Shown: one piece after another, positions 4,464-44,150 of the stretch
Position numbering within the stretch: the stretch's first letter is position 1
Layout of the letters: each line of letters opens with the position of its first letter
Source of the DNA: a virus
Virus record (IMG/VR): IMGVR_UViG_3300018080_000027
Coordinates: 1 to 54,687 of that record
Reading direction: 5' to 3' (one strand)
Length of the DNA stretch: 54,687 bases
Position numbers and translations under genes: made by a program
The notes under the pieces: model-generated
Told to the model about the DNA's origin: nothing
What the model saw: the letters and a program-made list of their open reading frames with translations, nothing else
Database searches by the model: none

Positions 4464-5756
4464 ATGCCTATTGTTGTTGGACACGACCCGAACCCAACCG
4501 CGATTGCGGCGGCTGGCTTTGCGGCTGGCGCCGGGAAGAGCAAATACCGTCAGTCTTCCGAGTGGTTGAAGTACACCCAGGCGGAAGAGGAACGCAGGCT
4601 CCGCGAGCGGTTGGCCCAAGACAAAATGCGGTTCGAGGCCGACAGAGAGATGTTCCGTGCCGGCAAGCAAATGGAGTTGCAGGACCGGCAACTCCAATCC
4701 TATGCCGATCGTCAACGGATGGATCAGCAGGGCCGCATGGATGCCCAGCAAATGGACTGGCAGGGCCGATATGAGCTTCAAGCTCGCCAAGTGGATGCCG
4801 GGATCATGGAGGGCATCCGGCTTGGCAAACTGGAGTTACCCCCGGCTGCACAGAAGCAGCTAGACCAACTGAACGCCGACGAAGCATCGATGGTCCAGAG
4901 CGGTCATTACGACGACGAGGCGGTGGCTGAATTCCGCGAGAAGGCCCAAGCGATTCGGAGGAGGATTCTCCGCACAGCCAAGAAGAAGCCGCAGAACAAC
5001 GATCTGTCGCTCAAGGAAGGATGGGCCCAAGACACAATGCTCGTTGACGATGGCAATGGGCCGTACCGCGTGCAGCGGACTGATAACGGCTGGGAGGTCA
5101 TCAAGGGTGCGCCGGAAGGCGGCGGCAACGCTTCTGCGATCGAGCAGATGGAGAACCGCGGCAAAATCTACAAGGCCCGGTCGGACTACATCAAGCAACA
5201 GGCGTATCGATACGAGCCGAAAGACGAGCTTGGCACGCCCAATCAGGCAGAATTCGACAAGGTTGTGGCCGAAGCGAATGCCTTGTTCCCCGACATCTAC
5301 GAAGAAGCACCCGAGGAGCCGGAGGGTACGTCGGGGCTAACTACCAACCGCGGATCTTATCGCGATTTCTTCGATCGTAGGAGACTGGCGGAACTTGATA
5401 AGGTTCGAGCCGCGAACAAGGCAATTTCACAACCCAATGGGCAAAAGCCATCGGGAGCACCCGCCGCCGGCAAGCAGCCGATCACTATGAAGGCCATTTC
5501 CGAAGCCACGGAACTGACGAATGAGATGCTCGACAACCCCACCGACGATGGCGCGATCTACTACCATATCGTACGGAGCAAGACGGGCAAGCCGGTGCGG
5601 GCCTATGTCCGGTGGAATGCCAAGGACAAGAAGTGGGATGTCATTGACAGCGAGGATGTTCCTATTCCCCAGACCGCGGTAGAAGAATTCGAGAAGGGCG
5701 GCTATCGCATGCGCGGGATAATGGGCTACCCAACGAACCAGATTCGAGGTTTCTGA
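4464..5756 (+). CDS. Hypothetical internal-virion-like protein (Q/R/E-rich coiled coil)
   Basis: 430-aa ORF with a GGAGA RBS 7 nt upstream. Its stop overlaps the next start (TGATG at 5754-5758). Confidence 0.6.
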   Translation: MPIVVGHDPNPTAIAAAGFAAGAGKSKYRQSSEWLKYTQAEEERRLRERLAQDKMRFEADREMFRAGKQMELQDRQLQSYADRQRMDQQGRMDAQQMDWQGRYELQARQVDAGIMEGIRLGKLELPPAAQKQLDQLNADEASMVQSGHYDDEAVAEFREKAQAIRRRILRTAKKKPQNNDLSLKEGWAQDTMLVDDGNGPYRVQRTDNGWEVIKGAPEGGGNASAIEQMENRGKIYKARSDYIKQQAYRYEPKDELGTPNQAEFDKVVAEANALFPDIYEEAPEEPEGTSGLTTNRGSYRDFFDRRRLAELDKVRAANKAISQPNGQKPSGAPAAGKQPITMKAISEATELTNEMLDNPTDDGAIYYHIVRSKTGKPVRAYVRWNAKDKKWDVIDSEDVPIPQTAVEEFEKGGYRMRGIMGYPTNQIRGF

Positions 5757-8700: not shown

Positions 8701-11700
8701 GGAGCAGTACCGCGAAGCGAAGGGGGAAATTGAGAAGAAGAAGGCCGAAGCCGCACGCAAAAAAGCGGAGATGGCTGACAAAGACAAGTTGCGCAACGCC
8801 CGAAAGAAAGTGAGGCAGTTGCAAGACACCCGCTACTGGAAAGAATCCCGCAAACGAGCGCAAAAGCGGAAGGGGAAGAAGGGGAAGGTCGAAATTGCAA
8901 AGGATGATGAAAACCGCGAGGAGAGGGTGGCCACAATCCTGAGTGACAAGTGGGCCATTACGGAAGGCAAAGAGGAGGGCGGCGGCAAGGTTTACTCGCT
9001 AACCCACATCCCGACAGGTAGGTCTGCGGTTGGGTATGACAAACCACTCGACGTAAAACACTTCATGCAGTTTGCTGAAGAAATCGGTATGGATTGGGGA
9101 GCCATCCCCGACGACGGGAATGTCTCTTCCGAAGACCAGCGCCGCCTTAGGCGAGCGATGGTCGCTTTCGATGCGGAGAGCTTCACCGATTTGACGCAGG
9201 AAGAGCAGGACATCCTTCGCGGGGGCGTGGAAGTTGCTGATCCGGGGATTACGGCCGATATGATCCTCGATGCTTACGACCTCGGTAAGCACGGTGGCGA
9301 AACTTTAGGCTTGAAAAAACAGGGCGTCAAGATCATCGAGCAACTCACCAAGGACGTTCCCGAATTCGCCTACGACCCGGTGTTTGTGGTCGACAACGAG
9401 AAGAAGTTGATCTTTCGCGACCACTACACATTCAAGTTCGAGCCAGGCCTGTTCAATCTGCACCCCACCGAAGTCGAGCCGGGGCAGACGGTTGGAATCA
9501 ACTTGCCTGACCTGGGGCTGAAACTCGAAACGGATCAAGCCCGAGTTATTGCCAAGACCCTGAAGAACGCGGGCTATCAGGTCTCCGTGGGGCGAGGCAA
9601 GAAGGCGAGCGGCACGGTCAAGGTCAAGGCGGATGGCTACACATTCGAGGCATTCAGGGAGCGGGCCCGCGGCTGGGTGGTGCATGGCATCAAGAACGCA
9701 GAGGTCGCACTGGAAACCAAACTGCACAATCTGGTTGGGAGGATCCGCTGGAACCACCACTCGACGAAGGAGGCGCTCGCAGTCGCCGGCAAGGAAGCTG
9801 CATCGGATTTTGGGGAGACGACACCAGCCAAGAAGAAGGCCACCCCGAAGGCAGACGAAGGCTCCGGCATTGCCAAAATGGCCAACCCGACCCGCCAGTC
9901 TCGAACGGCACGGCGAAAGGCCAAAGACGAAGAGGTAGGGATTGCCGCCGCCGACATCGTAAAAACCGCCGAGCGACTATTCGGCGTAGCGATCCGAGAG
10001 GGCGGGTTCAGCAACAAGGCGGCCGGTATCTACAAGTGGATTACCGGGAGCAACACCCCGCCGAGTCCGGAAGTGGTTCGCACCGGCGAGCACTACTATG
10101 CCAGCTTGGCGGTCGCTTCCCACGAGATTGGGCACCATATTGACGAGAAGACCAAGGCGGTCAAGTCGATGCCTCCGGCGGTACGGGAGGAAGTGAAGGG
10201 GCTGGACTATCAACCGGAGAAGGCTCGACCGTCCGAGGGGTGGGCTGAATTCCTCCGGCGGTATATGACCGAGCCACCGATCGAAACGATAATACTCGCC
10301 GATGGCGGGTGGGTCAGACAGGAAGTTCCCAACCCCGGTGTGGATGCCCCGAAGACCCTTGCGTGGTTCGAGGGCACATTCCTGCCGGCCAATCCCAAGA
10401 TAGCTAAGGCCATCACCGAGTTCCGCGGATACGCTCAGCAGTTCGCCCAGCAGAGTGTGTTCCAACGGGTAGCATCCCTGATCGCCGACCGGAAACCTCA
10501 AGACCTGGACTTCAAGCAGCGGTGGCTGAACAAGTCGCGACGATGGTTGAACCGGCTGAAGACGTCTTTCGTCGACAAGTTCCACACGCTGGAGTGGATT
10601 CAGAAAGAGGCGAAGCGAAGGGGGCACAAAGGCGTTGGAATCTACGACCTCACGATGGCCCACTTCCTTTCCGCGTCGTCGCACGCAACGGTCGCGTTCG
10701 AGGAAGGGGTTCGTTCACTCCAGACCGGCCGACCGATCGGCGAAACAACCCTGTGGGGCCTGCGAGACCATTTGGAGTCGGACGGCGAATACACCGACGC
10801 TGTCCTGTATGCTCTCGCGCGACACACTGCTTTCATGGCGGAGACCAAGCCAGAGTACAATACGGGCATGGACGTCGAAGATGCGGATGCTTGGATCCGC
10901 GAAGTCGAGACCACGGGGAAGAAAGATCGATTCGAGGCGTTCGCGAGGGGTCTTTCTCAGTTCAACAACGACCTGATCCGGATGCTCGTTGAGGCTGGCG
11001 CTTTACCGGTGGCCGAAGCCGATCGGATGATGGCGTACTACGAGGACCAGAACTACTTCCCGTTGCATCGCGTTCGAGACGTGGAGAACAGTCAGTTTGC
11101 CGGCACGGGTGCGCGGTTCGTGAATCTCGGGCGTGCCGTTCGCCGCCGAAGCAGAACCGGTTCCGGCCGACAGGTCATCGACCCGATTGACGCCACCGTA
11201 GCTCAAGCCATCCGGTTCTACGGTCGAGCCATCCAGGCGAGGCAGCAACACGTTTTGTCGGAAACGCTTGACCCGCACCGCGGTGGTGTTGGCGGGATGG
11301 GCGGGCTGATGGACCGTGTAGACCCCCGCAAGAAGGTCACGCACGGCAAGATCCAGGAGATCCTCAAAACGCTTGTCGACGAGGGTATCATCGAAGCGGA
11401 CGACGCGAAGGCTATGCGAATTGCGGCCAAGATCCTACACCCCTATGAGGGATTACCTAGCGCCAAGTCGTTGCAGTGGTTCGCCGAACGGCATGGCATC
11501 GAGATCCCCGAGGCCGAAGAGGGCGAGATCGAGCCAGAGTTGGCGGAGGACGTCTGGGTCCAACTGGTGGATGCCGCCATGCAAGAGCCCGACGCATTGG
11601 CGGTCATTTCTCTTTGGCGGCCAGACTACACCCCGAATGCCGCAAAACGAACAGTGGTCATCTACAGCAAGAGTGGCGATCCGTTGATGTACGAGATGGA

Positions 11701-13726
11701 TCCGGACCTGTACGCAACGGCGACCGGGATGAATGAGATGCAGTTCGGGCCTTTCATGTCGGTGTTCCGGGCAGCGGCCAGATACTTCAAGACTGGGGCC
11801 GTAGGCGCAAGCACTGGGTTCGGCACGGCGAATCTCTTCCGTGACTACTGGGAGTTCCAGGGCAAGGCCCGCCATACAAAGGGATTCGATTCTCTCGGGA
11901 AGCCGCCGGAGATGCTCGGGCGTTACGTTGCCGAGAAGGCTCGCAAGTTGGCGGGGCACAAGGCGAACGACCCACTGATCCGCTTGTACGAAGAAACTGG
12001 CGGCAAGGTCTATTCCGTGATTGGCCACGACGTCCACGGGCGCCAGAGGTATCGCCGGCGGCGAATCGGAAAGTCGACGATGAGCCAGCTCGGCGTCTCC
12101 ATGAAGCGGCCGATGGAAACCGCCGAAGGGGCACTGCAGGCCGTCCAGGACATCATTGCCATCAGCGATGCACCACCCCGGCTGGCAGACGCCGAAGCCG
12201 CACTCAAGGAAGAAGGGTACGTGGTGCGCGACGGCAAATGGTTCGACCTCAACGCAGACAGGTACGTTGTTGCCCTGCCGGAACACGCGCGGATCAAAGC
12301 GGCTATCGCGATGGCAGAAGCCACGATCAACTTCAAGCGAATTGGGTCTAAGGGACAATACATCGAGTCGTTCATGCCGTTTTTCAACGCGACGGTCCAG
12401 GCGATGTACCGCCAGTACCGGCAAGTCAAGGGTCTGCGAAGTCTCGGGAAGGGTAACGCCGAGGCAATGAGGGCCAAGCGGTACTTGGTATACTTGAGCG
12501 CGTTGGTGTCGGCTGGAGTTCTGCACTGGTTGTTGCGGCACGACGACGACGATTGGAGGGAGCAGGACGCTTATCTTCGCGATGGGTACTGGACGTGGGG
12601 GGCGGACGGCAGAACGTACGTGCGGATACCAAAACCTCGGGACACGGCGGTTGTGTCCAACGTCACTGAGAACATGCTGGACGCGTGGTATCACGAGGAC
12701 GCACGAGGCATGGACGACCTGATCGGCCGGGACGTTATGAATCGATTGCCGACCGGAGGCGGGCTTGTGCGTGGTGCCATCGAGACGTATGTTGCCGACT
12801 ACGACTACTTCCGCGGGCGGCAACTGACGCCGGAATATGTGAAGCACCTACCGAAAGAACAGCAGGTCACTCCCTACACGACACGGGCTTCGGACGCCAT
12901 CGGGGCGGTCACGGGACGCTATTTCGGCACAAGCCCCGTCCAGGCTGAGCATCTCCTGAACAGTGCGTCCGGTGGATTCTATCATCGAATGGCCGACCTG
13001 TACGACGCGAGCGTAGATGGCCGGCTGGGGCCCGAGCACGTTCCTTTTATTCGCGGGCTCGTCATCAACCGCCACCAAGCGCGGTCCGTCAATGAGTTCT
13101 ACGAGGAGAAGGAAGCCACCCGCATCGCAATCCACCGAGAAAAGGCGGCGAAGGGCAAGGTCTCGGATGAATTGGTCCGCAAGCAAGCGATTTTGGACGG
13201 ATACGCTGAACTGATGACCAAGATTCGCGACATGGAAATGAGGGCTGGAAAACGCCGCGGGTATGAGTACCAGCCCTACATTGTCGGTCTCGCGAGGAAT
13301 GCACTTGGGTATAAGCCGCTGGAGAACAACCCCAACCCGCTGGTTGACGAGAACGCCCCGGACGCGATCAAAGGCGTAGTGAAAGACTACTCCCGGCGAG
13401 TCGTCAACCAAGCGGCGGCGCCCCTCAAACGGCAATCGGAGTACAAAGACGACGAGGCCTTCGAGGAAGCGAGGAAATCCCAGCTACGTGGACGGGCGAG
13501 GATGGAATTATTGGGGTTGTCCCACGATGAAGCCCAACGGCTACTTGTCGAATCCTACCGCCGAACGGATAGCAAGGGCCGGAGACAAACCGAGATGCAG
13601 GCAGGCGCACGAGGCAAGTTTGATCCTTCCTATCTCGCGAGGGCCTTGGAATTGGCTGAATTGTACGGCGAATCCGACCCGCGTGATGCCGTTCGGCGGG
13701 CCCGAGGGCGCATCGGGACACACTGA
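5756..13726 (+). CDS. Giant (2656 aa) virion-associated, polyvalent-type protein with a zincin HExxH motif
   Basis: Single uninterrupted ORF. Acidic PE-rich linkers, an SH3/KOW-like stretch (YQVGDRVRDIRTGDIGVVEVV), SLAVASHEIGHHIDEKT followed by EGWAEFLRRY, and a large conserved-looking C-terminal half. Sits where podoviruses carry internal core/ejection proteins. Confidence 0.7.
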   Translation: MPLQLTSEQLKSMVYEEPTSYTSEELKAERTAIDATREIMEHLGDRRRVLKAWRGATPEQREEILATAPGMGEFLRERRPGPLVRTAEAFVTRGMAQDIAQPIMELARFGGTEEEIAAIRQLEGIASQQYAPATPDDPWYERGPLLATEMVPWAVLAIRGGAAGKGVARKTGLASAMARTAGMGNVTLRAAEVAGITTATFPTLYAQELDSLREAGIGEGVWWREPAAALTATVNGTIESVVPNPFKVGKVPLNQGAMKAARSYLLEAVKQAPGELSEEFLQGLASGVGRAVATHLDENAPDQGLGSAFQESWNQGTEAALPLAFMLGVPAAGGAGVTAARVRLAELQQIRAKDWVTVEEGESLGLSEEEMLNRNTRKEAVDKRIKEAEKEVEDAEAVRSPEEEVREDEGGEDLRGAGEGQVPAEPEGEGAAAPEVPVEEEPPAPATDLESMTPEEVEREWRRVFPDAPKIAPGKTQMIREIRGETVPEPEAEPEEQPAEPEGPYEEFRDEYHRLLKKFMEYTPDQAGSHEYARRLGEFADRFPPEWVERAERELEEPEATVEPEPEPDPEASPEPESPYQVGDRVRDIRTGDIGVVEVVDRFGSGKVAIEYRRERDGVIDTRGLGDLEDATDASSQEPGQQAEPEPETTTAETEEVNIRAHMERNGVAAKDGVTAKVIPHRTRDGFYEVQITIAGDRQFAGEYEAISDAQEAAIGFLENPESIPEEAKPKPEEKKKRPLKSKKRVTAKGDQIDLSGLTDQELRHLSRYHKRRAYAGGHDIGGSVADEIQRRGIKDYQEGPPESKEAFEKYNNLRKFREDTQRNVTSAHTSLYSLEWTLTIEEAHNKRGVPLGGRGEYGLSAAKKWKSLIAAAKAAVPERAEYKKAKQAIEDAKAEVEKAKAEELKAERAYNRAAAEGFPKIPKGQVRYPIEGRQSVKVGEYDPERGQYEVESPSHTHWVSPQPLLDNYVSKEERDALNRIEEQYREAKGEIEKKKAEAARKKAEMADKDKLRNARKKVRQLQDTRYWKESRKRAQKRKGKKGKVEIAKDDENREERVATILSDKWAITEGKEEGGGKVYSLTHIPTGRSAVGYDKPLDVKHFMQFAEEIGMDWGAIPDDGNVSSEDQRRLRRAMVAFDAESFTDLTQEEQDILRGGVEVADPGITADMILDAYDLGKHGGETLGLKKQGVKIIEQLTKDVPEFAYDPVFVVDNEKKLIFRDHYTFKFEPGLFNLHPTEVEPGQTVGINLPDLGLKLETDQARVIAKTLKNAGYQVSVGRGKKASGTVKVKADGYTFEAFRERARGWVVHGIKNAEVALETKLHNLVGRIRWNHHSTKEALAVAGKEAASDFGETTPAKKKATPKADEGSGIAKMANPTRQSRTARRKAKDEEVGIAAADIVKTAERLFGVAIREGGFSNKAAGIYKWITGSNTPPSPEVVRTGEHYYASLAVASHEIGHHIDEKTKAVKSMPPAVREEVKGLDYQPEKARPSEGWAEFLRRYMTEPPIETIILADGGWVRQEVPNPGVDAPKTLAWFEGTFLPANPKIAKAITEFRGYAQQFAQQSVFQRVASLIADRKPQDLDFKQRWLNKSRRWLNRLKTSFVDKFHTLEWIQKEAKRRGHKGVGIYDLTMAHFLSASSHATVAFEEGVRSLQTGRPIGETTLWGLRDHLESDGEYTDAVLYALARHTAFMAETKPEYNTGMDVEDADAWIREVETTGKKDRFEAFARGLSQFNNDLIRMLVEAGALPVAEADRMMAYYEDQNYFPLHRVRDVENSQFAGTGARFVNLGRAVRRRSRTGSGRQVIDPIDATVAQAIRFYGRAIQARQQHVLSETLDPHRGGVGGMGGLMDRVDPRKKVTHGKIQEILKTLVDEGIIEADDAKAMRIAAKILHPYEGLPSAKSLQWFAERHGIEIPEAEEGEIEPELAEDVWVQLVDAAMQEPDALAVISLWRPDYTPNAAKRTVVIYSKSGDPLMYEMDPDLYATATGMNEMQFGPFMSVFRAAARYFKTGAVGASTGFGTANLFRDYWEFQGKARHTKGFDSLGKPPEMLGRYVAEKARKLAGHKANDPLIRLYEETGGKVYSVIGHDVHGRQRYRRRRIGKSTMSQLGVSMKRPMETAEGALQAVQDIIAISDAPPRLADAEAALKEEGYVVRDGKWFDLNADRYVVALPEHARIKAAIAMAEATINFKRIGSKGQYIESFMPFFNATVQAMYRQYRQVKGLRSLGKGNAEAMRAKRYLVYLSALVSAGVLHWLLRHDDDDWREQDAYLRDGYWTWGADGRTYVRIPKPRDTAVVSNVTENMLDAWYHEDARGMDDLIGRDVMNRLPTGGGLVRGAIETYVADYDYFRGRQLTPEYVKHLPKEQQVTPYTTRASDAIGAVTGRYFGTSPVQAEHLLNSASGGFYHRMADLYDASVDGRLGPEHVPFIRGLVINRHQARSVNEFYEEKEATRIAIHREKAAKGKVSDELVRKQAILDGYAELMTKIRDMEMRAGKRRGYEYQPYIVGLARNALGYKPLENNPNPLVDENAPDAIKGVVKDYSRRVVNQAAAPLKRQSEYKDDEAFEEARKSQLRGRARMELLGLSHDEAQRLLVESYRRTDSKGRRQTEMQAGARGKFDPSYLARALELAELYGESDPRDAVRRARGRIGTH

Positions 13727-16239: not shown

Positions 16240-16279
16240 AAAACGGCCCTCCCTACTACAGAGTGGAGAGGGCCGTTTT
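16240..16279. terminator. Bidirectional intrinsic terminator between the convergent late and early operons
   Basis: 12-bp perfect stem aaaacggccctc / gagggccgtttt, flanked by an A-run on the left and a T-run on the right. Lies between the stops at 16201 (+) and 16333 (-). Confidence 0.75.
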
Positions 16280-25893: not shown

Positions 25894-27432
25894 CTAAAAA
25901 GGGATCTCGTCTTCCTTAACCGTTTGCGCCGCGGGGTTCAGCATTCCCTCGAGCGCCGCGATACGATCCGCTGCTTGCTGGAAGCTGAGGGAATTCGCCG
26001 AGTTGTACCCGAGCGATTGCAGGAATTTCGCGTTCTCTGCCATCGCACCCTGGCTGTAGAGCTTCATCGAGAGATCGCGAATCCGGTCTCGCTGCTCTTG
26101 TGTGGCCCTGCCGTTGGTGGGCAGCGCCGGTTCTTTTTCGGCTGGCGGGAGCACTGGCATTGCCGCCATGTCTTTGTCGTGCTTCATCTTCAGCAGCTTG
26201 GAGAGGACATCTTCGGCCTCCGAAGCGGGCAGTTGTGCCGGGCTGTTGACGTTTGTTTGCGCCGAGAACCATTCGCACGCATGGGCGCCGGTCTCGAATA
26301 GTTCCCTCAAGAGCCCCATGATCTCTTGCTGCTCTCGGTCTGAAGCCAACGCCGGCTGAGGATCTTCGGCGGGCGGTGCCGTTGCGGGTGGCTGCGATCG
26401 AGTGTCTGCGTTTCCGGCCGCCGCGGCTTGCTTTGCCAATTCCAAAGCCGACAGCTTCGATTGCTCTGCCTCGGCCTGGAATTGGGCGATCTGCTGCTGA
26501 ACCGCGAGCCGCTCGTCCTCGCTCAGTTTCGCCGGCTCGGGCAGCCGTTCGGCAGCCGCCAGCTTACTAAAGTCCGGCGGGTTCGCGATGTACGCCCGAA
26601 TTGCGTCGGGAGTGCATTCCGGTATTCGAGGCGGGAGAACGGGTCGATCGTCGGCCGCCGTCTTCCCGAAGACGACTAACCGCTCCTTCTTCAAGATGCC
26701 GGCCGGTACTTTGGGTGCTTCCTTGCCCTTCGCTTTCGGAGACCGGTCAAGCTCGATGTGGAGGGTCGCGAGTTTCTCAAGGACATCGAGTCCTTCGGCA
26801 ATCTTGTTCTTCGTCTTCTTGCCATCAGCCCACTCGTTCTTCAGATGAACCGTCATCACGAAGGTCTCGAACCGCAACCGGCAATCGGTCGACAGGATGT
26901 GTGAGAGCATCGACTTCACGTCCGGCCAGAGAAACATGCTGGCGGCCTTCGTGTACTCGGCCGCCGATCGCCCGAACGCCTCGGGGTGCCGACGAAGCCA
27001 GTCGATGAGCCCTTCTTGCAATGGCGTGAACGTGTCGACGATACCTACGCGGTATCGACCGGGTGGAATCGAGAGCATCGAGAGATACCACGCGCGAAAG
27101 AGTGAGGCCGATGGCGAATTGCCGCAATCGGCTTTCTCTTTCAAGATTCGGAGCCAACGAGGGTCGTTGCTCTCGGGTGTGACCACGCGATTATGAACCC
27201 CCGCGTCAATAGCCGCTCGCGTGTCCTTGTGCTCGAAGTTGAGCCCACCAGCGTAGGAATCCAGCGACCCCTCTTGGTCGAATGCGATAGTGGTCGGCTC
27301 GACTTCCGACGACGGCAGCCGGCAATTTTCATCGATCGTCACGCCGAACAGGCTCTTCCCGCTGTTGACTGCGCCGGACACCATGATGATCGGTATCCGC
27401 TGGTTCCCCCAAAGACTTGTGGATGTTGGCAT
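25894..27432 (-). CDS. RecA-superfamily P-loop ATPase (Sak4/AAA_24-like) with a long C-terminal extension ending in an SSB-type acidic tip
   Basis: Walker A SGAVNSGKS and Walker B-like RVGIVDTF. ATG 27432 is preceded by GGAGGGAG. The last residues are KEDEIPF. Confidence 0.6.
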   Translation of the reverse strand: MPTSTSLWGNQRIPIIMVSGAVNSGKSLFGVTIDENCRLPSSEVEPTTIAFDQEGSLDSYAGGLNFEHKDTRAAIDAGVHNRVVTPESNDPRWLRILKEKADCGNSPSASLFRAWYLSMLSIPPGRYRVGIVDTFTPLQEGLIDWLRRHPEAFGRSAAEYTKAASMFLWPDVKSMLSHILSTDCRLRFETFVMTVHLKNEWADGKKTKNKIAEGLDVLEKLATLHIELDRSPKAKGKEAPKVPAGILKKERLVVFGKTAADDRPVLPPRIPECTPDAIRAYIANPPDFSKLAAAERLPEPAKLSEDERLAVQQQIAQFQAEAEQSKLSALELAKQAAAAGNADTRSQPPATAPPAEDPQPALASDREQQEIMGLLRELFETGAHACEWFSAQTNVNSPAQLPASEAEDVLSKLLKMKHDKDMAAMPVLPPAEKEPALPTNGRATQEQRDRIRDLSMKLYSQGAMAENAKFLQSLGYNSANSLSFQQAADRIAALEGMLNPAAQTVKEDEIPF

Positions 27433-27560
27433 GGCTCCCTCCGTTGAGTTGAATGACATTCAAGTTCCAGAGTGGAGCGGCCGGGAATCGGGCCCGGCAC
27501 AAGGCCACGAGCGGTGATAAGTGGAGTCCCGTCCTTCGCTCGTTCCTTCGCTCCGGTCGT

Positions 27561-28319
27561 TTAGCCCATTCCCAATCGCTGGGCGACCCAAAGCGTGACA
27601 CGCACGTCTTGGCGAAGGTACTCCAGGGCCAACTCTCGCTCTTTCTTCGATCCGTGGTACATCCGGTCGAAGTCGGCGCCGGTACATCCCTTCAGTTTGC
27701 CCTCGACGCCGAACGCCCTGGCCAGAACGTCGAGTTTCACGTACTGACCATACGCGCCCATCGTCCAGGTAGTCATGGTGTCGAGAAACGCCTCGCTGTT
27801 GAATTGCAGACGACCGCCGCGAAACGTGAACACCCAGTCGGGAATTGAGACGTCGAGCAGCCACGAACGACGCACGAGAAATGGCAAGTCAAAACCGACG
27901 CCGTTATGGAAGACAAACTCTTCGCCGTCTACGTGGCTTATAACGGCTGTCTCCCACCAATGAGTCAGCACTCCGACTTCTCCGTGCCCGTGGAGCAAAT
28001 GCGGTTCCCTCACGGAAAACCCGTCCCACATCCCGATTGCCAGCACCCTCCCCGTCAGCGGATCGAGCGCCGCCTTCTCTTTCACGCCGGCCAACCATTC
28101 GGCTTTATGGCTGGCGAGGTAGTTTGGCCAGTTGGCGATCTTCGCGCAATGGATGGCTTCTGCCTCCGCAATCTTCGCGTCGATCGTTTCCTGCTTCTTC
28201 GCCCGTCCAAGGTCTACCGATGCCGGGTCAAACGCCCCCGGTTTCTCCGGCGGCTCGTACTGCCGCAACAGTTCCTCGTCAGGCTGTGCCCCCGTCTCGA
28301 TGTCGACCGCTATTAGCAT
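27561..28319 (-). CDS. DEDD (DnaQ/PolB-exo-like) 3'-5' exonuclease
   Basis: MLIAVDIETG (ExoI), FHNGVGFDLPFL (ExoII) and YLRQDV (ExoIII-like). A GGAGGGAG RBS sits inside the csrA 3' end. Confidence 0.75.
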   Translation of the reverse strand: MLIAVDIETGAQPDEELLRQYEPPEKPGAFDPASVDLGRAKKQETIDAKIAEAEAIHCAKIANWPNYLASHKAEWLAGVKEKAALDPLTGRVLAIGMWDGFSVREPHLLHGHGEVGVLTHWWETAVISHVDGEEFVFHNGVGFDLPFLVRRSWLLDVSIPDWVFTFRGGRLQFNSEAFLDTMTTWTMGAYGQYVKLDVLARAFGVEGKLKGCTGADFDRMYHGSKKERELALEYLRQDVRVTLWVAQRLGMG

Positions 28320-28479
28320 CGCTCCCTCCTCGGGTTAGAAGTTCTTCGCGCAGAATGCGCAAGTCATCGGGTGCCTCGATGGCCAAACGAGCTTCGCCCG
28401 CTTTGGCCCGAGTGACGGTGATTCGCACGTTGTTCCCGATATGAATCGCTTGTCCGATCTTCCTTGCTAAGACGAGCAT
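28279..28479 (-). CDS. csrA: CsrA/RsmA-family RNA-binding translational regulator
   Basis: MLVLARKIGQAIHIGNNVRITVTRAKAGEARLAIEAPDDLRILREEL aligns almost residue for residue with E. coli CsrA ([47 protein letters not shown]). AAGGAG RBS 7 nt upstream. Confidence 0.9.
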   Translation of the reverse strand: MLVLARKIGQAIHIGNNVRITVTRAKAGEARLAIEAPDDLRILREELLTRGGSDANSGRHRDGGTA

Positions 28480-28505
28480 CGCTTCACTCCTTTGATTGGA
28501 TTACC

Positions 28506-28554
28506 AAGAAACAAAAACGCCCCTGGCCGATGGGTGCGAGTCATCGACCAGGGG
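28506..28554 (-). terminator. Strong intrinsic terminator on the minus strand, about 27 nt upstream of the csrA start codon
   Basis: Minus strand: CCCCUGGUCGAUG-ACUCGCACC-CAUCGGCCAGGGG (13-bp stem with one G.U), followed by CGUUUUUGUUUCUU. Confidence 0.7.
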
Positions 28555-28754
28555 GCACACTCGCGGAGGGGCATCCGCGTCGACCTGACAATTACTGGAC
28601 GGTCTTTCCTGTGGTCCGTGTCCTCCGAACGCGCAGCACCAAGCTGCAACACCATCCGTGCGTGCTTCCATGCTAGACCCCAGCGCGAGTTAGTTTGCAC
28701 CGGATTGATTCGAGAGGGAACCAAGAGGGTGCTGTGTTTTGGAAACGCTTAACG
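28555..28754 (-). promoter_or_regulatory. Untranslated GGA-rich leader, or a possible stand-alone small RNA, between the promoter and the terminator
   Basis: No credible ORF. Seven GGA triplets on the minus strand cluster within about 28574-28670, including CACGGAUGG and a GGAC...GUCC hairpin with GGA in its loop. An eighth GGA is in the csrA Shine-Dalgarno. Confidence 0.4.
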
Positions 28755-28777
28755 CATCGCAAATGTATATTGCGATG
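28755..28777. promoter_or_regulatory. Perfect palindrome CATCGCAA-N7-TTGCGATG overlapping the -10 and start site (candidate operator)
   Basis: 8-bp arms at 28755-28762 and 28770-28777. Confidence 0.55.
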
Positions 28778-28790
28778 AAGAATTAGTCAA
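28762..28790 (-). promoter_or_regulatory. Sigma70-type promoter for the leftward early (csrA-led) transcript
   Basis: Minus strand TTGACT (28790-28785), 17-nt spacer, TACATT (28767-28762). Located in a local AT-rich island. Confidence 0.55.
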
Positions 28791-28796
28791 GTGCCG

Positions 28797-29030
28797 TTAT
28801 CGCTTTTTCTTCCGGCGCCGCTTTCTGAACATCGGATTACCGCGCAATCGCTCGGTCTCCTTGAATCGGAAAACCTCATCTTCCGGAATGAGCCACATTG
28901 GCCCTACCCGTCGAGTGTCCTTGAATCGGCCTTCTTTGCAGTAGCGTGAAACGAGGCTGTTGCAAATCCCGATAACCGGAGCCGCCTCGTCGACCGTCAT
29001 CATTCCCGGAATGTTGGTTGCCATACTCAT
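28797..29030 (-). CDS. xis: Excisionase-family (MerR-like HTH) DNA-binding protein
   Basis: MTVDEAAPVIGICNSLVSRYCKEGRFKDTRRVGPMWLIPEDEVFRF is a typical excisionase/HTH_17 pattern. Divergent from int, with attP between them. Basic C-terminal tail. Confidence 0.65.
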   Translation of the reverse strand: MSMATNIPGMMTVDEAAPVIGICNSLVSRYCKEGRFKDTRRVGPMWLIPEDEVFRFKETERLRGNPMFRKRRRKKKR

Positions 29031-29062
29031 GCCTTTATTGTAGGATGTGATGGACAATTGAG

Positions 29063-29145
29063 CAATACAGACACGCGGGAAGTTCCACGGCTCACAGCAT
29101 TGCCGCCGGGGCGTTGCCGCTACCCGCTTCCCGCGGTCTGTATTG
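29063..29145. repeat. Imperfect 19/20-bp inverted repeat flanking about 44 bp, next to the attP core
   Basis: CAATACAGACACGCGGGAAG (29063-29082) versus CTTCCCGCGGTCTGTATTG (29127-29145), with a one-base length difference between the arms. Confidence 0.6.
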
Positions 29146-29153
29146 GGGTTCAG

Positions 29154-29206
29154 TGCGGGCGAGAGGAGTCGAACCTCCACGTCCTTACCGGACACAGGAA
29201 CCTGAA
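29154..29206 (-). other. attP core: 3' 53 nt of a type-II tRNA-Leu(CAG)-like gene (anticodon loop to discriminator); not a complete tRNA
   Basis: Minus strand UUCAGGU-UCCUG-U-GUCCGGUAAGGAC-GU-GGAGG-UUCGACU-CCUCU-CGCCCGC-A parallels E. coli tRNA-Leu(CAG) element by element. The 5' stem partner (CAGGA) and the 5' acceptor strand (GCGGGCG) are absent upstream. Confidence 0.75.
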
Positions 29207-29357
29207 GTAAGGGGCTGGAAAAAATGGAATTCCCTGCCAAATGCCTAATCGGAGGGGTATCGGCCCAGCTACTAGACAACCACTATTAGGGTTGTTTGGT
29301 AGCGGCATTGACGGAGTTTTCTGCATGGAGGCGTGGTTGCTCTCAGGAGGACCCGCC

Positions 29358-30209
29358 GTGATTAGAAGCTGCACCCTCGCGGAATACGTAGACGCGTACG
29401 CGACACGCCGGCCGATAGCCCCCGCCTCCGTTGAATTGTTGCGGGTTTCTTGCCGCCTGCTGGCGTCCTACCTCGAACGATCGCCAACCCTGCCCGATCT
29501 CTCGGACGATACGCTCAACGGCTTCGTGCAATGGCTTGAAGCCGGCCGACGGCCAGCGACCGTGAAGAAACACCGGGCGAACATTCTGTCACTCTGGCGA
29601 GACGCTTGGCATGGCAATCTGGTCGAGGACCCGCCGGCCCGGATCCGGGTGGTGCGGCTCGAACGGTCACTCCCCGACGCTTGGACCATCGAAGAGATTC
29701 AGCAATTGATTTCGACCGCCGAGAAAATGAGGGGGCGATTCCGCAAAACGCTGATTCCGAAAAGCTGGTTCTGGCACTCGATGATCCTCGGCCTTTGGGA
29801 TACCGGATTGCGGATTGGGGACCTGCTCGAAGTCCGTCGCCCGCGCGTCACTGGCGATGGGCGGTTCCGCGTCCTGCAGCGGAAAACGCAGCATTGGAAG
29901 GATTGCCAATTTCGGCGGCCAACGCTCGAATTGATTGATTCCGGTCTGGATGGCCGAGTGGTCATCTGGCCGCTCTGGGCTTCGAGGCGAGACTTCTACA
30001 AGGCATTCAAGAGGATCGTCAGGGCAGCGAGGATCCGGCCGGGCACCACCCGCTGGATCCGGCGATCGGCGGCGAGTTACGTCGAGCGTGACCACCCTGG
30101 AGCGGCTACCGAGTTCCTCGGGCACCGAGATAGGACCATCGCCGACCGGCATTACATCGACCCGCGAATTGCCAGGCCGGCACTGCATCAACCCCCAGAG
30201 TTGGGGTGA
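29358..30209 (+). CDS. int: Tyrosine recombinase (phage integrase)
   Basis: GLRIGDLLEV (Arg box), RWIRRSAAS, LGHRDRTIADRHYID (His...Tyr). GTG 29358 is preceded by AGGAGG. ATG 29241 and ATG 29325 are alternative starts. Confidence 0.85.
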   Translation: MIRSCTLAEYVDAYATRRPIAPASVELLRVSCRLLASYLERSPTLPDLSDDTLNGFVQWLEAGRRPATVKKHRANILSLWRDAWHGNLVEDPPARIRVVRLERSLPDAWTIEEIQQLISTAEKMRGRFRKTLIPKSWFWHSMILGLWDTGLRIGDLLEVRRPRVTGDGRFRVLQRKTQHWKDCQFRRPTLELIDSGLDGRVVIWPLWASRRDFYKAFKRIVRAARIRPGTTRWIRRSAASYVERDHPGAATEFLGHRDRTIADRHYIDPRIARPALHQPPELG

Positions 30210-30224
30210 GCACCTAGCGTTACC

Positions 30225-30538
30225 GGCCACACTGGCCTCATTTTGCGCGCTACCGTCAACAGCACTATTGCACACACAAACCATTATAATACACACACTT
30301 ACAAGAAATAGATTTAAGTTTGTGGCCAGTGTGGCCACTGTGGCCAGTATTTTATATACGCGTATGTATTAGGGTGTATGAAGTGAAAGAGAACGAACCA
30401 AAGTATACGCAAGAGTGTATACGTATGTTTTTCGCCGGCCACATTGGCAACACTGGCCACAAAATGACGCAAGTGATTGCGAACGAACAACTTAGGTGTG
30501 TGGCCAGTAGGTTGGAAAAGCGGGACAGTGTGGCCAGT
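30225..30538. repeat. Iteron-like repeat field in a non-coding AT-richer gap
   Basis: GTGGCCAGT/GTGGCCACT x3 in tandem at 30322-30348. TGTGGCCAGT again at 30499 and 30529. Inverted copies at 30452-30460 and within GGCCACACTGGCC at 30225-30237. Also palindrome ATACGCGTAT (30355-30364) and GTATACG x2 (30403, 30416). Confidence 0.8.
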
Positions 30539-30640
30539 AACCAAAGTGACTTGAGAAACAGGGAAAGATAGGGGAGCACAAGCGAGCTTCCAATTCCCCC
30601 GATCGGCGGATTCGGTGGGGCACCCATAAGAGGCAGATAG

Positions 30641-31342
30641 CTACGGCGAGGCATCGCAGCTTTCGTATCTTGCCAAGATTCTCGCTACAATCTGGTGCGG
30701 CCAAGTGTACTTGCCGCGGCGTTCGATCCTCTCGGCTTCCAATCGCCGGCCGATCGCTCGAAGTGATAGCCCCTCGGTTCGCAGCCGTTGGATGTGTCCA
30801 ACGACCTCGATTTCTTCCGGGCACTCGACAAGCCGGGCCGGGTCTTCCGGATCCCGCATCGTGCCCCAGGGTACACGATTGCTCATCCGCCGGCCGTTTG
30901 CCTGATGGCAGAGCATAGCCGCGCTGGTCCTCATGGCCCCTTCCTCGCGGAAATACTGATCCATCGCCACCGCGAAGTGGAACATCAACCGGCCTTGGGG
31001 CGTGCTGGTGTCAACCTGGAAGCCCTCGAGCGCTCGCAATTCGGCCCCTGCCGCGTCGAGCCGTTCGTAGACCTCTATTGCATCCCGAAGGTTACGGGCG
31101 AACCTGGAGAGCGTGTAGACGCATAGAACGGCCTTCTGCCGGCAAGCGGCGTCGATCGCGGCCAGAAACCCGGGCCGGTTGTCCATCCTGCCCCCACTCT
31201 TGAGGGAATCGGAGTGTTCCCCAACGACCGTATCCCCCCGCCGGTCGCAGTCAGCCCGCAATACCTGGCACTGCAGGGCGATGCTCTCATTTTCTTCCGG
31301 CCTAGGGGAGATTCGAGCATACAAGACGGCGGGCGTTGTCAT
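30641..31342 (-). CDS. Small serine recombinase (resolvase/invertase family) with a C-terminal HTH
   Basis: AVLYARISPRPEENESIALQ (catalytic Ser context), VYTLSRFARN, VDTSTPQGRL, C-terminal LSLRAIGRRL. ATG 31342 overlaps the methylase stop (ATGA). Confidence 0.85.
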   Translation of the reverse strand: MTTPAVLYARISPRPEENESIALQCQVLRADCDRRGDTVVGEHSDSLKSGGRMDNRPGFLAAIDAACRQKAVLCVYTLSRFARNLRDAIEVYERLDAAGAELRALEGFQVDTSTPQGRLMFHFAVAMDQYFREEGAMRTSAAMLCHQANGRRMSNRVPWGTMRDPEDPARLVECPEEIEVVGHIQRLRTEGLSLRAIGRRLEAERIERRGKYTWPHQIVARILARYESCDASP

Positions 31343-31989
31343 GCCGGGGCCTCGTTCATGGTCAACAGAACCGCATTCACCCGGGTGCCTTCCTCCCGGA
31401 ACGATCCCTCGGGTAACTCCTCCCACGAATCGGCCAACGGCTGCAGCTTCTCGCGTTGCCGAGGTCCATTGGCACACAATGCAACCAGCCGGCCGCCGGG
31501 CACCAACAAGCCCCGGGCGTGCTGGATGTGCTTCACGTCTCGCCCCATCTTGAATGGGGGGTTCATTACGATCCGGTCGAACCGCCCTCCGAGGCGATCC
31601 GGGCCACACTCCAGAAAATCGGCCTGCACTAGCCGTATCCCGCCGCCGAATCGATACAACTCGCCGCAACAGTCCGCGGAGTTCTCAACCAGGATAACCT
31701 CGATCCGATCACGGCAAGCCCGCCGGATGGCCTGGTACAGCCGACCGAGACCCGCCGACGGCTCTAAGACCCTATGCCCCTCCTCGATCTCCGCAATCGC
31801 CGCCATGCGGTCGGCCAACCACTCTGGAGTTTGAAATAGATTGAACGCCGAGACGGCCCGGGGGGCGGAATCCTCCCGGGCCAGCCGGTGGAACCTCGAG
31901 CGCTCGCGGCTCATCTCCTCCCCGACCGCCTCCGTCACTTCGCGCAGGTGGCGAAGTCGGAGACGGCCGGTCAACTGGGACTCTCTCAT
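31339..31989 (-). CDS. Orphan N6-adenine DNA methyltransferase (no cognate endonuclease recognised in the window)
   Basis: FQTP, VLEPSAGLG (motif I) and VMNPPF (motif IV). ATG 31989 overlaps the upstream stop (ATGA). Confidence 0.8.
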   Translation of the reverse strand: MRESQLTGRLRLRHLREVTEAVGEEMSRERSRFHRLAREDSAPRAVSAFNLFQTPEWLADRMAAIAEIEEGHRVLEPSAGLGRLYQAIRRACRDRIEVILVENSADCCGELYRFGGGIRLVQADFLECGPDRLGGRFDRIVMNPPFKMGRDVKHIQHARGLLVPGGRLVALCANGPRQREKLQPLADSWEELPEGSFREEGTRVNAVLLTMNEAPA

Positions 31990-33521
31990 GCTGTCACCTT
32001 CTCCGCTTGTGCCTCGATGGCATCCCAATCGAGGGGTAACGGCTTTTGCGGCTTGTCTTCGAGCACAACCACCGAATCGGCCCCCATGCGCCACATAATT
32101 CGGATCCGGAACACCGCCGCTCCACTGGATCGATTCGAGCGCCGACCGTTGGCATTGATCGCCACCGCCTGGGCCATATCGCCTCGGGACCAGCGGCTAT
32201 ACTTGGCCTGGGTGATTCGCGTGACCTCTTCATGGTAGCTGTGCCCGTTCCAAAGGGCCTGAAGCCTCGCGGCGTCCTCATCGGTCGGATTGACCAGGGG
32301 AGGGGCTTTCGGCTTCCTTGTCTTCGCTGCCTTGACCGCCGCCGCCTCTTCCTCGGTCGGGGGCGTGTAGGCGCCTGACCCTAGCCGGGTAACGTCCAGC
32401 TTGTGCAGCACCAACGGCCGCGGATTGTCGGGCCCGTATTCCCTGCCCTGGCTGTCATAGCGGTTCTGATTCGGGGCCTCAACCATCACCGAAGTGACGG
32501 CGCCCGTGACCCGGCTCTTGTTCACCTTCTGAATCTGATACCGCCCACGCTCCAGCGGCCACCGGTCGCGCCACTGGATCCAGCCGCCGGGCTCCATTTC
32601 GACCGCTCCAGCGCTCCCCCCCTCGACTTCGAGCATGGCCCGTTCATAGGTCAGCCGCAACGCATAGTGAGCCAGCCAACGGGCATGAAGCCCGCCGGGT
32701 TCCCCCGGATCCCTCCAGCCCTCCAACGCGAAAGCCGCTGCTTCGCGAGGCGTGATAGGGTCCTCAGGATCCGTCAGAAGCGAATAGAGCGATTGCCGGC
32801 CGTTTCCAAACGCCTCCGGATCCGGTTCCCGCCGCGGGTGGTGATATGTCCGACACCCCGAGAAGTGATTCGCCAGCGTGTAGGCGAGTTTCCCCGCCTC
32901 GGTGGCGTCGGGGTTCTCCGCGTCGGCCACGTCAGCCCCAGGCAAGCCCGAAACCCGGTTCCATGCGTCGAAAAGCTCCCGGGCCCTGTCGAGTTCCTTC
33001 TGCAACTTTCGCTCCCCGGCCTCCAACCGCTTGATCCTCGAGCGCCGCACCGGGGCACTCGACTTATGCAACGCGTGTCGAATCACGCCGGCCGTCCGAG
33101 TCTGCCAGTATTCGGCCTTCGACCACTGCGAGACCGCGGCGACGCGATGCCGATCATGCCTCGCCGCCTGCCGCTCTGCCCTTGCCCGGCTCTGATGGCC
33201 GAACACTGCCGGCCCGGCCTCGAACGCATCCGCACGCCCCTCGGCCTCTCCCCGCCGGCGATCTCGATACCCGCCGAACCGTTCCGCCCGATCTGCGCTT
33301 CGCTCCTCGGGGCTGTAGTCCTCGTCGTCGATCTCGTCGACGAATTGAAACAACTCGTCTTCGGCTTGAGGCGTCCACCGCGGGCACACGAAGCACTGTT
33401 GGTGCCGTGCCCACTTGAACCCGACGCCCTTCAAGGCTTGGTATTCGTCCTCATCGAGGCGATAAGCCGCGTACAGCCGCAGCTTGTTGTCTTCGGGGCT
33501 GTAGGTTGCTTGGTGTTCCAT
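31986..33521 (-). CDS. DUF3560-like protein
   Basis: N-terminal DNKLRLY...LKGVGFKW...EDYSPEERSADRAERF...GHQSRARAER...AEYW pattern recalls DUF3560 proteins of plasmids and phages. The start carries the shared start-associated sequence. Confidence 0.5.
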   Translation of the reverse strand: MEHQATYSPEDNKLRLYAAYRLDEDEYQALKGVGFKWARHQQCFVCPRWTPQAEDELFQFVDEIDDEDYSPEERSADRAERFGGYRDRRRGEAEGRADAFEAGPAVFGHQSRARAERQAARHDRHRVAAVSQWSKAEYWQTRTAGVIRHALHKSSAPVRRSRIKRLEAGERKLQKELDRARELFDAWNRVSGLPGADVADAENPDATEAGKLAYTLANHFSGCRTYHHPRREPDPEAFGNGRQSLYSLLTDPEDPITPREAAAFALEGWRDPGEPGGLHARWLAHYALRLTYERAMLEVEGGSAGAVEMEPGGWIQWRDRWPLERGRYQIQKVNKSRVTGAVTSVMVEAPNQNRYDSQGREYGPDNPRPLVLHKLDVTRLGSGAYTPPTEEEAAAVKAAKTRKPKAPPLVNPTDEDAARLQALWNGHSYHEEVTRITQAKYSRWSRGDMAQAVAINANGRRSNRSSGAAVFRIRIMWRMGADSVVVLEDKPQKPLPLDWDAIEAQAEKVTA

Positions 33522-35044: not shown

Positions 35045-35142
35045 GTCTCGCACCTCCAAAAAAAATGCCTCGCCGGTCTCCTGGGTGGCAACCCTAGGAT
35101 GGAAGACCGACAAGGCGTATTGTGTTGCTCAGAATTCACGGG

Positions 35143-39724: not shown

Positions 39725-39789
39725 GCGCGGGTCTACAATGGCATAGGCGGCTGATCCCCGCCAAGATGCCTTCAACATCGCAGCCATTG

Positions 39790-39826
39790 AAGGAGGCCGC
39801 GCTGGAAAGCGTTGGCCTCCTTTTTT
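39790..39826 (+). terminator. Intrinsic terminator or attenuator between terL and the portal gene
   Basis: AAGGAGGCC-N15-GGCCTCCTT followed by TTTT. Confidence 0.6.
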
Positions 39827-44049: not shown

Positions 44050-44064
44050 GGAGAGCGGTTTTTT
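44039..44064 (+). terminator. Intrinsic terminator overlapping the capsid stop codon
   Basis: AAACCGC-N9-GCGGTTT followed by TTTT. Confidence 0.6.
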
Positions 44065-44150
44065 GTCCTCCAGGAGTAGCGGCCCTGGTCAACTAGCCGC
44101 CTCCGTTTTGTTGTGTAGCGTTTCATTTTCTACATGGAAGGAGTCTTCCA

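Follow-up and report, generated by a model that had tools for sequence, protein, structure and literature searches.

The csrA gene of Escherichia coli is translationally autoregulated: as summarised in PMC7652899 from work of 2011, its leader holds four CsrA sites, one of which lies over the Shine-Dalgarno (SD) sequence. Antagonists of CsrA are small RNAs (sRNAs) in Gammaproteobacteria and FliW elsewhere (PMC7652899), and in the pgaA leader CsrA controls Rho-dependent termination through RNA remodelling (Figueroa-Bossi et al. 2014, PMC4052769). Homologues of CsrA are also carried by mobile elements, among them the RsmM-type proteins of Pseudomonas aeruginosa phages (PMC7366521), RsmQ of plasmid pQBR103 (PMC9928087) and, as cited in PMC7366521, CsrT of Legionella integrative and conjugative elements. 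A csrA gene has been reported in 30 of 2517 phage genomes (PMC7366521), and 46 Pseudomonas phages in GenBank carry one. The control and role of these phage and plasmid copies are largely unexplored. Here we describe the csrA locus of IMG/VR virus record IMGVR_UViG_3300018080_000027, analysed over its full 54,687 nucleotides (nt; hereafter the window), which is a complete viral contig of ~54.6 kb and is identical in three assemblies. Directly before csrA lies an apparently non-coding stretch that is rich in GGA triplets and runs into a strong intrinsic terminator just upstream of the csrA SD. We favour, at a probability of roughly 0.45, the explanation that this stretch is a CsrA-binding autoregulatory leader combined with a constitutive terminator that gates the csrA-replication operon, with a decoy RNA arising as a by-product.

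The identification of the gene as a true member of the CsrA family, already proposed in an earlier note made from the letters of the window alone, is secure by sequence comparison; dimer formation and binding of GGA-containing RNA are predicted. Residues 1-49 of the protein match the 53-position Pfam model PF02599 with 67 bits against a cutoff of 27 (E = 1.5e-18), the PHROG assignment is that of a ‘CsrA-like regulator’ (phrog_9500), and the sequence can be aligned end to end with the structures of RsmE and E. coli CsrA (PDB codes 2jpp and 1y00). Both RNA-binding motifs are retained, the N-terminal MLxLxRK (M-L-V-L-A-R-K, positions 1-7) and L-R-E-E (positions 43-46). In E. coli CsrA, residues L2, L4, R6 and R44 are known from mutagenesis to bind RNA. 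CsrA occurs in planctomycetes as well, and one from Pirellulales is 60% identical to the phage protein. A word-indexed protein search with the phage CsrA alone returned the query itself as the sole match, and the best CsrA match outside the family, P0003, was set aside because of its cellular context.

A gap of 317 nt separates csrA from the gene upstream of it, and seven GGA triplets (at 28669, 28657, 28626, 28623, 28617, 28609 and 28576) fall within 97 nt of this gap; an eighth, at 28490, is part of the SD. The clustering of seven GGA in about 100 nt (28574-28670) that the earlier note had described, including a hairpin with GGA in its loop, was thus recovered from the motif positions and the predicted fold, in which the hairpin is GUUCG-GAGGACA-CGGAC. 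None of 2000 dinucleotide-preserving shuffles of the leader reached this density, and an equal GGA count is found in 0.24% of the 100-nt windows on the same strand. Five to six of the eight triplets stand in an A(N)GGA or AGGA context, and one occupies the 7-nt loop of the hairpin. According to the predicted folds, a 5′-proximal stem-loop is followed by a GGA-cluster domain (Table 1), which includes CACGGAUGG, ACAGGAAAG and the hairpin, and whose closing helix of 12-13 bp (28690-28678 with 28571-28559) encloses all seven GGA. Searches for iterons or direct repeats in the leader gave only short two-copy families attributable to chance. No Rfam family matched the leader, either at the gathering threshold across the whole window, where only tRNAs elsewhere were found, or at E<=10 between 28200 and 29100, and the Csr/Rsm sRNA families (CsrB, CsrC, RsmX/Y/Z and others) matched neither this leader nor those of ten related loci.

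Beyond the GGA domain, the 13-bp-stem terminator with a U-tract at 28506-28554, again as described in the earlier note, was confirmed with a predicted free energy (dG) of -31.3 kcal/mol (z=-3.45); its GC-rich stem contains a single G-U pair. The csrA ATG (28479) stands 27 nt past the end of the U-tract (28506), in agreement with the distance noted before for the ribosome-binding site and start codon, and the SD lies in between. In a terminator scan of both strands this terminator was among the approximately five cleanest canonical ones in the window, comparable with two bidirectional terminators that stand where gene blocks converge (16245-16274 and 35067-35116) and with two in the rightward block. 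Its parity with the junction terminators suggests that canonical intrinsic terminators are used by the phage (and its host). The two within the rightward, presumably structural block are strong plus-strand terminators at 39789-39823 (-25.5 kcal/mol) and 44050-44104 (-24.8 kcal/mol), situated 29-46 nt ahead of the next open reading frame (ORF) start, so the csrA leader is not the only place where the phage has a terminator inside an operon.

Folding of the nascent transcript at increasing lengths revealed no antiterminator that would sequester the 5′ arm of the terminator, the best alternative pairings being 4-8 bp, and the closing helix of the GGA domain is predicted to coexist with the terminator in these folds. 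Because nothing sequesters the 5′ arm, an attenuator that works as an RNA switch is not supported; one of the two proposals of the earlier note, an attenuator or antitermination gate, thus lacks support in so far as it is read in this way, and a riboswitch-like terminator/antiterminator switch was not found in these folds. Two short complementarities were seen in the same region. The terminator loop and 5′ arm, CGAUGACUCGCAC (28534-28546), are 85% complementary to 13 nt inside csrA (28416-28428), and two copies of ACUCGC, one in the closing helix on its 5′ side (28685-28692) and one in the terminator loop (28536-28541), are each complementary to GCGAGU at 28559-28564, shortly ahead of the terminator. 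These pairings could be due to chance, or represent a pseudoknot or a P4-like pairing scheme.

At the upstream end of the gap, the TTGACT-N17-TACATT site reported in the earlier note is present and matches the sigma-70 consensus at 9 of 12 positions. We scanned both strands between 26000 and 32000, where 2.2 such sites are expected per 6 kb, and estimate the chance of a correctly oriented match in the 60-nt slot at roughly 1%. A perfect 8-bp inverted repeat lies over the -10 element and is a candidate operator; it occurs a single time in the window, and no further operator copies were found when the whole window was searched for them. In relatives of the phage, similar sigma-70-like sites stand at the head of the same operon. 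The scan detected no second promoter-like site on the minus strand; past the terminator it covers ~2.3 kb of the operon (28279-26000), and internal promoters for the replication genes are possible in the ~10 kb that follow (26000-16333). The interval from the U-tract to the SD offers neither space nor a match for a promoter. To transcribe csrA, and by inference whatever is co-transcribed with it, RNA polymerase must pass the terminator.

On the minus strand, a gene with a helix-turn-helix (HTH) domain of family HTH_17, the 317-nt gap, csrA and an exonuclease gene follow each other in this order. From the gap to the csrA start, the succession of promoter-like site, GGA cluster, terminator and ribosome-binding site agrees with the earlier note. 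Downstream of the exonuclease gene and up to position 16333, the strand encodes a 521-aa protein, a RecD/Dda-like helicase, a primase-helicase and a primase. The exonuclease, the RecD/Dda-like helicase and the primase bear out the replication operon that had been predicted downstream of csrA. The accompanying claim that csrA is its first gene needs to be qualified, as csrA is the second gene on the strand, after the HTH_17 gene, and comes first only if the internal promoter is real. The exonuclease gene begins within the 3′ end of csrA (a 41-nt overlap, 28279-28319), and its ribosome-binding site GAGGAGGGAGCGAUG, located inside csrA, contains two GGA; translational coupling to csrA, or control by CsrA, is possible for this gene.

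Table 1. Positions of the csrA leader elements and of the adjoining genes in the window.
Feature	Position	Strand	Remarks
HTH_17 gene	29027..28797	-	Excisionase-like or small DNA-binding regulator; Pfam HTH_17; PHROG DNA-binding and excisionase families
TTGACT-17-TACATT promoter-like site	28790..28762	-	Sigma-70-like; implied start near 28755
Perfect 8-bp inverted repeat CATCGCAA-N7-TTGCGATG	28777..28755	-	Over the -10 element; candidate operator
5′-proximal stem-loop of the leader	28732-28697	-	Predicted; in full-length and most nascent-length folds
GGA-cluster domain	28690..28559	-	Predicted; minimum-free-energy folds, unpaired probabilities, inverted repeat I3
Intrinsic terminator	28556..28506	-	Arms 28554-28542 and 28532-28520, 9-nt loop ACUCGCACC, U-tract UUUUUGUUUCUU; inverted repeat I1
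SD of csrA, AAAGGAG	28493-28487	-	Contains the eighth GGA; candidate CsrA site that would block the ribosome
csrA	28479..28279	-	66 aa; shares its 3′-terminal 41 nt with the beginning of the exonuclease gene; PF02599, phrog_9500, alignment with PDB 2jpp and 1y00
DnaQ/PolB-type 3′-5′ exonuclease gene	28319..27561	-	First replication gene downstream; Pfam RNase_H_2, DNA_pol_B_exo2

Related phages were found through homologues of the exonuclease, which served as a marker, and their sequence contexts were fetched; this gave eight lineages, besides that of the window, which carry csrA and have exonucleases that are 48-62% identical. Nine related lineages entered the GGA comparison. A search of GTDB genomes with the exonuclease returned no prophage relatives. 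The csrA gene lies upstream of the exonuclease gene in L004, L008/L077, L076, L078, L083 and L085. It is found downstream of it in L075 (3290-3499) and L080 (1257-1511), and it is absent from L081/L082; csrA thus behaves like an accessory gene that can change its place within the early operon.

Taken jointly, the csrA 5′ spacers of the nine lineages contain 40 GGA, against 24.4 +/- 3.4 in shuffles (maximum 37 in 1000), and the leaders of L008, L076 and L085 are enriched individually (p=0.006-0.07). In all nine lineages the SD overlaps a GGA, and a GC-rich hairpin is found 20-40 nt before the csrA start in 5/9. The L008/L077 locus repeats the layout of the window, with an HTH gene, a GGA-rich 147-nt spacer and a terminator of -19.8 kcal/mol with UUUUACUUU, 23 nt before the ATG; in L008, no internal promoter could be detected between the HTH gene and this terminator. 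The GGA-rich spacers of the relatives are intercistronic, measure 67-147 nt from the upstream gene to csrA, and mostly lack a terminator. L076, L085 and L083 have a 7-9-bp GC stem with a loop of ~20 nt that holds two GGA, followed by a weak U-rich tract and a GGA-containing SD. The leaders of L076 and L085 can be aligned with each other, and two compensatory pairs occur in their shared hairpin. The earlier note had looked to related phages for conservation of the GGA enrichment and of the hairpin. The joint enrichment is in its favour, but a canonical terminator before csrA is confined to the window and L008/L077, with a weaker one in L085 that passes a relaxed terminator test, and no relative's csrA leader can be aligned with that of the window.

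In four of these relatives, three to four TGGACA repeats were observed about 10-11 nt apart (L076 2000-2040, L085 1995-2045, L008 2351-2400 and L077 1865-1910). They overlap both a TTGACA-16-GGACAAT promoter and the 5′ end of a small HTH gene, the first gene of the early operon, and look like operator arrays. In an unrelated viral contig, L039, csrA is preceded within 60 nt (2065-2125) by ACAGGAUGA, by a terminator hairpin whose loop contains ACGGAC and which is followed by UUUUUU, and by the SD AAGGAG. This is suggestive as the clearest layout of putative CsrA sites on a terminator that we observed. The 10-mer CGATGACTCG, common to the pre-csrA hairpins of the window and L053, was judged a chance match because there is no wider similarity between the two.

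From what was computed directly, namely the sequence elements, the apparent non-coding status, the quality of the terminator, the GGA clustering and the GGA-rich leaders in relatives, we infer promoter use, CsrA binding, translational repression, termination efficiency and decoy activity in the following way. The 317-nt stretch would be the non-coding 5′ leader of a leftward early operon comprising csrA, the exonuclease gene and the replication genes, and it would probably be transcribed from the sigma-70-type promoter near 28755 under control of the overlapping inverted-repeat operator. The leader RNA would fold so as to expose several A(N)GGA motifs in one domain, and these, together with the GGA of the SD, would most likely be bound by CsrA, by the host protein first and by the phage protein later. 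Binding would repress translation of csrA, resulting in negative autoregulation like that of E. coli csrA. The terminator would act as a constitutive attenuator without an RNA switch, such that most transcripts would stop at ~250 nt, and csrA and the replication genes would be transcribed solely by polymerases that read through. Since the terminated ~250-nt RNA carries seven GGA, it would also serve as a CsrA decoy, whether selected for or not, and this sponge would be a by-product rather than a separate sRNA gene. The identity of CsrA with its retained RNA-binding motifs, the GGA cluster beyond the shuffles, the sequence context of the GGA, the GGA in the SD, the enrichment in relatives, the hairpin shared by L076 and L085, the parity of the terminator with those at the junctions, the L008/L077 layout, the absence of an antiterminator and the lack of room for a promoter behind the terminator all speak for this explanation.

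Several results weigh against it. The window holds 16 GGA clusters of equal density on its two strands, so the density is unusual but not unique, and we regard the location of the cluster, in an apparently non-coding stretch directly before csrA, as its notable feature rather than the density itself. The predicted probability of being unpaired ranges from 0.05 to 0.98 among the GGA, and, taken over its full length, the leader folds with no unusual stability (z=-1.59). No homologue of the leader was found with nhmmer and blastn against all fetched loci, with blastn against 50,697 GenBank phages or in exact k-mer scans of IMG/VR, where 27 matches were dismissed as chance because none extended beyond 18-36 nt; fold and GGA positions are thus left without support from covariation or conservation. 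Among the relatives, L004, L078, L075 and L080 have no terminator before csrA, and the only GGA of L004 is that of the SD. Finally, in the 100 nt upstream of 47 distinct, unrelated IMG/VR csrA loci, GGA occurs 3.11 times versus 2.82 in controls (p=0.32), and a strong terminator within <=80 nt upstream is found for ~9% of csrA genes versus 4.8% of controls, which is not significant. On the basis of these 47 loci, we rejected the idea that GGA richness or a terminator upstream of csrA is the rule in phages.

A stronger version, in which CsrA binding to the nascent leader alters read-through and the terminator becomes a CsrA-responsive gate, and/or the ~250-nt RNA is a true phage-encoded CsrA sponge, is in our view unlikely. 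If true, no Csr-type decoy before this RNA would have been linked in cis to its own CsrA, or have come from outside Proteobacteria. In either form, the locus would allow the phage to switch post-transcriptionally between lysis and lysogeny or to decide on replication.

Two gates of phage lambda, PR-cro-nutR-tR1, which depends on N, and PR′-6S RNA-tR′, which depends on Q, provide the model for a different explanation, in which the replication operon is held off until a phage factor, independently of CsrA, renders RNA polymerase resistant to termination, and the GGA are incidental. This role could fall to the HTH_17 protein, to another factor that acts on the leader RNA or at the inverted repeat, or to a put-like RNA. 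The succession of a small HTH gene, a terminator and replication genes, which recurs in L008/L077, agrees with such a gate, as does the inverted repeat over the promoter. Moreover, the operon-internal terminators of the rightward block indicate a seemingly general device of this phage that is unrelated to CsrA, and csrA genes show no general enrichment of terminators upstream. However, a by-eye search identified no N-, Q- or boxA/boxB-like element, and protein family scans pointed to none. Such a gate also leaves unexplained why the GGA cluster exceeds all shuffles and why relatives without a terminator have GGA-rich leaders, and we hold it to be possible but doubtful. If the GGA cluster were nevertheless incidental, the locus would be an ordinary lambda-like early-operon gate. 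The terminator might, on the other hand, be a mere insulator against transcription from the xis-like HTH_17 gene and, in the lysogen, against read-through from a tRNA-Leu gene, with the promoter-like site being a chance match. A tRNA-Leu(CAG) fragment at 29206-29152, the presumed core of the phage attachment site (attP), is oriented toward the HTH-csrA genes, and the tRNA gene rebuilt after integration would point into them, which gives the terminator a possible insulating role. This explanation is also consistent with a promoter match of just 9/12 and with the position of the L008 terminator behind an HTH gene that lacks a detectable internal promoter downstream. Against it, csrA and the first ~2.3 kb of replication genes (to 26000) would then have no promoter detected by the scan (26000-32000), the terminator lies ~240 nt past the HTH stop codon instead of directly after it, and the perfect repeat over the -10 element, like the similar promoters heading the operon in relatives, speaks for a genuine promoter. 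We therefore regard a pure insulator as improbable.

The remaining two explanations concern the product of the leader itself. One, in line with the other proposal of the earlier note, a sponge or decoy RNA, is a dedicated phage sRNA of ~250 nt (28755..28506) that would titrate host CsrA or buffer phage CsrA, csrA being expressed by read-through. A promoter-like site and a Rho-independent terminator do flank such an RNA, which with its seven GGA would have the size and density of CsrC or the RsmY/Z type, and one GGA is predicted in a 7-nt hairpin loop with several others partly unpaired. Yet no Rfam Csr/Rsm family matches even at E<=10, only part of the GGA is predicted to be exposed, and the RNA is physically the 5′ untranslated region (UTR) of csrA, as the terminator ends close before the gene with no intervening promoter. 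The intercistronic and mostly terminator-less GGA-rich spacers of the relatives likewise fit cis-regulation better, which leaves a dedicated sponge with a small chance in our estimate. The other is that the leader encodes a small protein, either from an 85-aa ORF with a TTG start (28724..28467) or from a 56-aa ORF with an ATG start (28671..28501). Both frames are open, the AUG of the 56-aa ORF overlaps the first GGA, and this ORF runs through the terminator, so that its translation, if it occurs, could in principle be coupled to read-through. Neither ORF has a Pfam or PHROG match, a convincing SD or similarity to the small upstream proteins of the relatives, and their codon-position GC contents (0.56/0.55/0.60 and 0.67/0.60/0.54) differ from the ~0.64/0.43/0.73 of real genes. 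For the 85-aa ORF, the only matches among 1.84 billion representatives were tandem-repeat artefacts scored over 5-12 stretches. A coding leader was rejected on these grounds as highly improbable, in line with the non-coding status assigned to the stretch in the earlier note.

The tRNA-Leu fragment (29206-29152, minus strand) corresponds to the 3′ 55 nt of the tRNA, and its longest matches, 55 nt at 94.5%, are to tRNA-Leu in metagenome-assembled genomes assigned to Pirellulaceae, to Pirellulales and to Planctomycetota. Together with the adjoining tyrosine integrase gene (29241-30209, plus strand) it indicates a temperate phage whose host, judged by sequence, is probably a planctomycete. To our knowledge, FliW is the known type of CsrA antagonist in planctomycetes, and we know of no sRNA antagonists there. 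The tyrosine integrase has a serine recombinase/invertase as its neighbour (30641-31669, minus strand), and the two are assigned to PHROG integrase and DNA invertase families. Between the two genes, about eight copies of GTGGCCA(G/C) surround an AT-rich core in both orientations (30225-30545); the motif is found again upstream of the early operon in L004 (2160-2290), and the set is a candidate for protein-binding sites of a regulator, of the arm type or of an origin. An interrupted 19-bp inverted repeat, CAATACAGAC.CGCGGGAAG / CTTCCCGCG.GTCTGTATTG, is located between the tRNA fragment and the HTH_17 gene (29063-29082 and 29127-29145, 44-nt spacer) and may function as tRNA terminator, operator or recombination site. 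The window also contains a giant ORF of 2656 aa (5756-13726), and ORFs of 2216-3723 aa lie directly upstream of the early region in the relatives L076, L078 and L085. Most proteins of the rightward block, and most of the structural proteins, have no PHROG match, and the phage lineage is thus poorly charted.

Among known systems, the E. coli csrA leader is similar in that it presents several GGA, one of them in the SD, and by analogy translational self-repression would be expected here. The phage leader differs from it in being longer, in enclosing seven GGA in a predicted closed domain and in having a terminator between these sites and the SD; moreover, the gene is phage-borne and heads a replication operon, and CsrA binding is predicted. 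Like CsrB, CsrC and RsmX/Y/Z of Gammaproteobacteria, the terminated leader RNA would be ~250 nt long and apparently non-coding, would carry multiple GGA, some of them predicted in hairpin loops, and would end in a Rho-independent terminator. Unlike these sponges, the phage leader has no Rfam match, is the 5′ UTR of csrA itself and probably belongs to a phage of planctomycetes. The lambda gates also combine a promoter or small regulator gene, a gene-free leader of ~200-250 nt and a strong terminator before an operon. In contrast to lambda, no N- or Q-like protein was found in the phage by family scans, and no nut or Q-binding (QBE) site by eye, and what the first gene past the terminator encodes is an RNA-binding regulator, the motif of which the leader contains in excess.

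As in the case of RsmM, RsmQ and CsrT, a small CsrA-family protein is encoded on a mobile element, and csrA of Pseudomonas phage phi297 is likewise situated in an early operon, upstream of recombination genes. For the former three, no cis leader or terminator is described in PMC7366521 and PMC9928087, and the phage analysed here represents an uncultured lineage. The compact arrangement of csrA, likely binding motifs and a terminator offers a testable case for the autoregulation of a mobile-element CsrA and for a 5′ UTR that serves as a decoy, and the locus may provide an entry to Csr biology in Planctomycetota. The pgaA leader resembles it in carrying CsrA-type sites, which are predicted in the phage, upstream of a termination event, but the phage terminator is intrinsic and no alternative structure ties the GGA sites to it. 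Phage-borne CsrA, self-repression by CsrA and CsrA sponges are thus already known, and termination linked to CsrA is known only in its Rho-dependent form (PMC4052769). What is new is the arrangement, in which the leader runs into a strong intrinsic terminator immediately in front of the csrA SD and the unit heads a replication operon, in an uncultured lineage of probable planctomycete phages.

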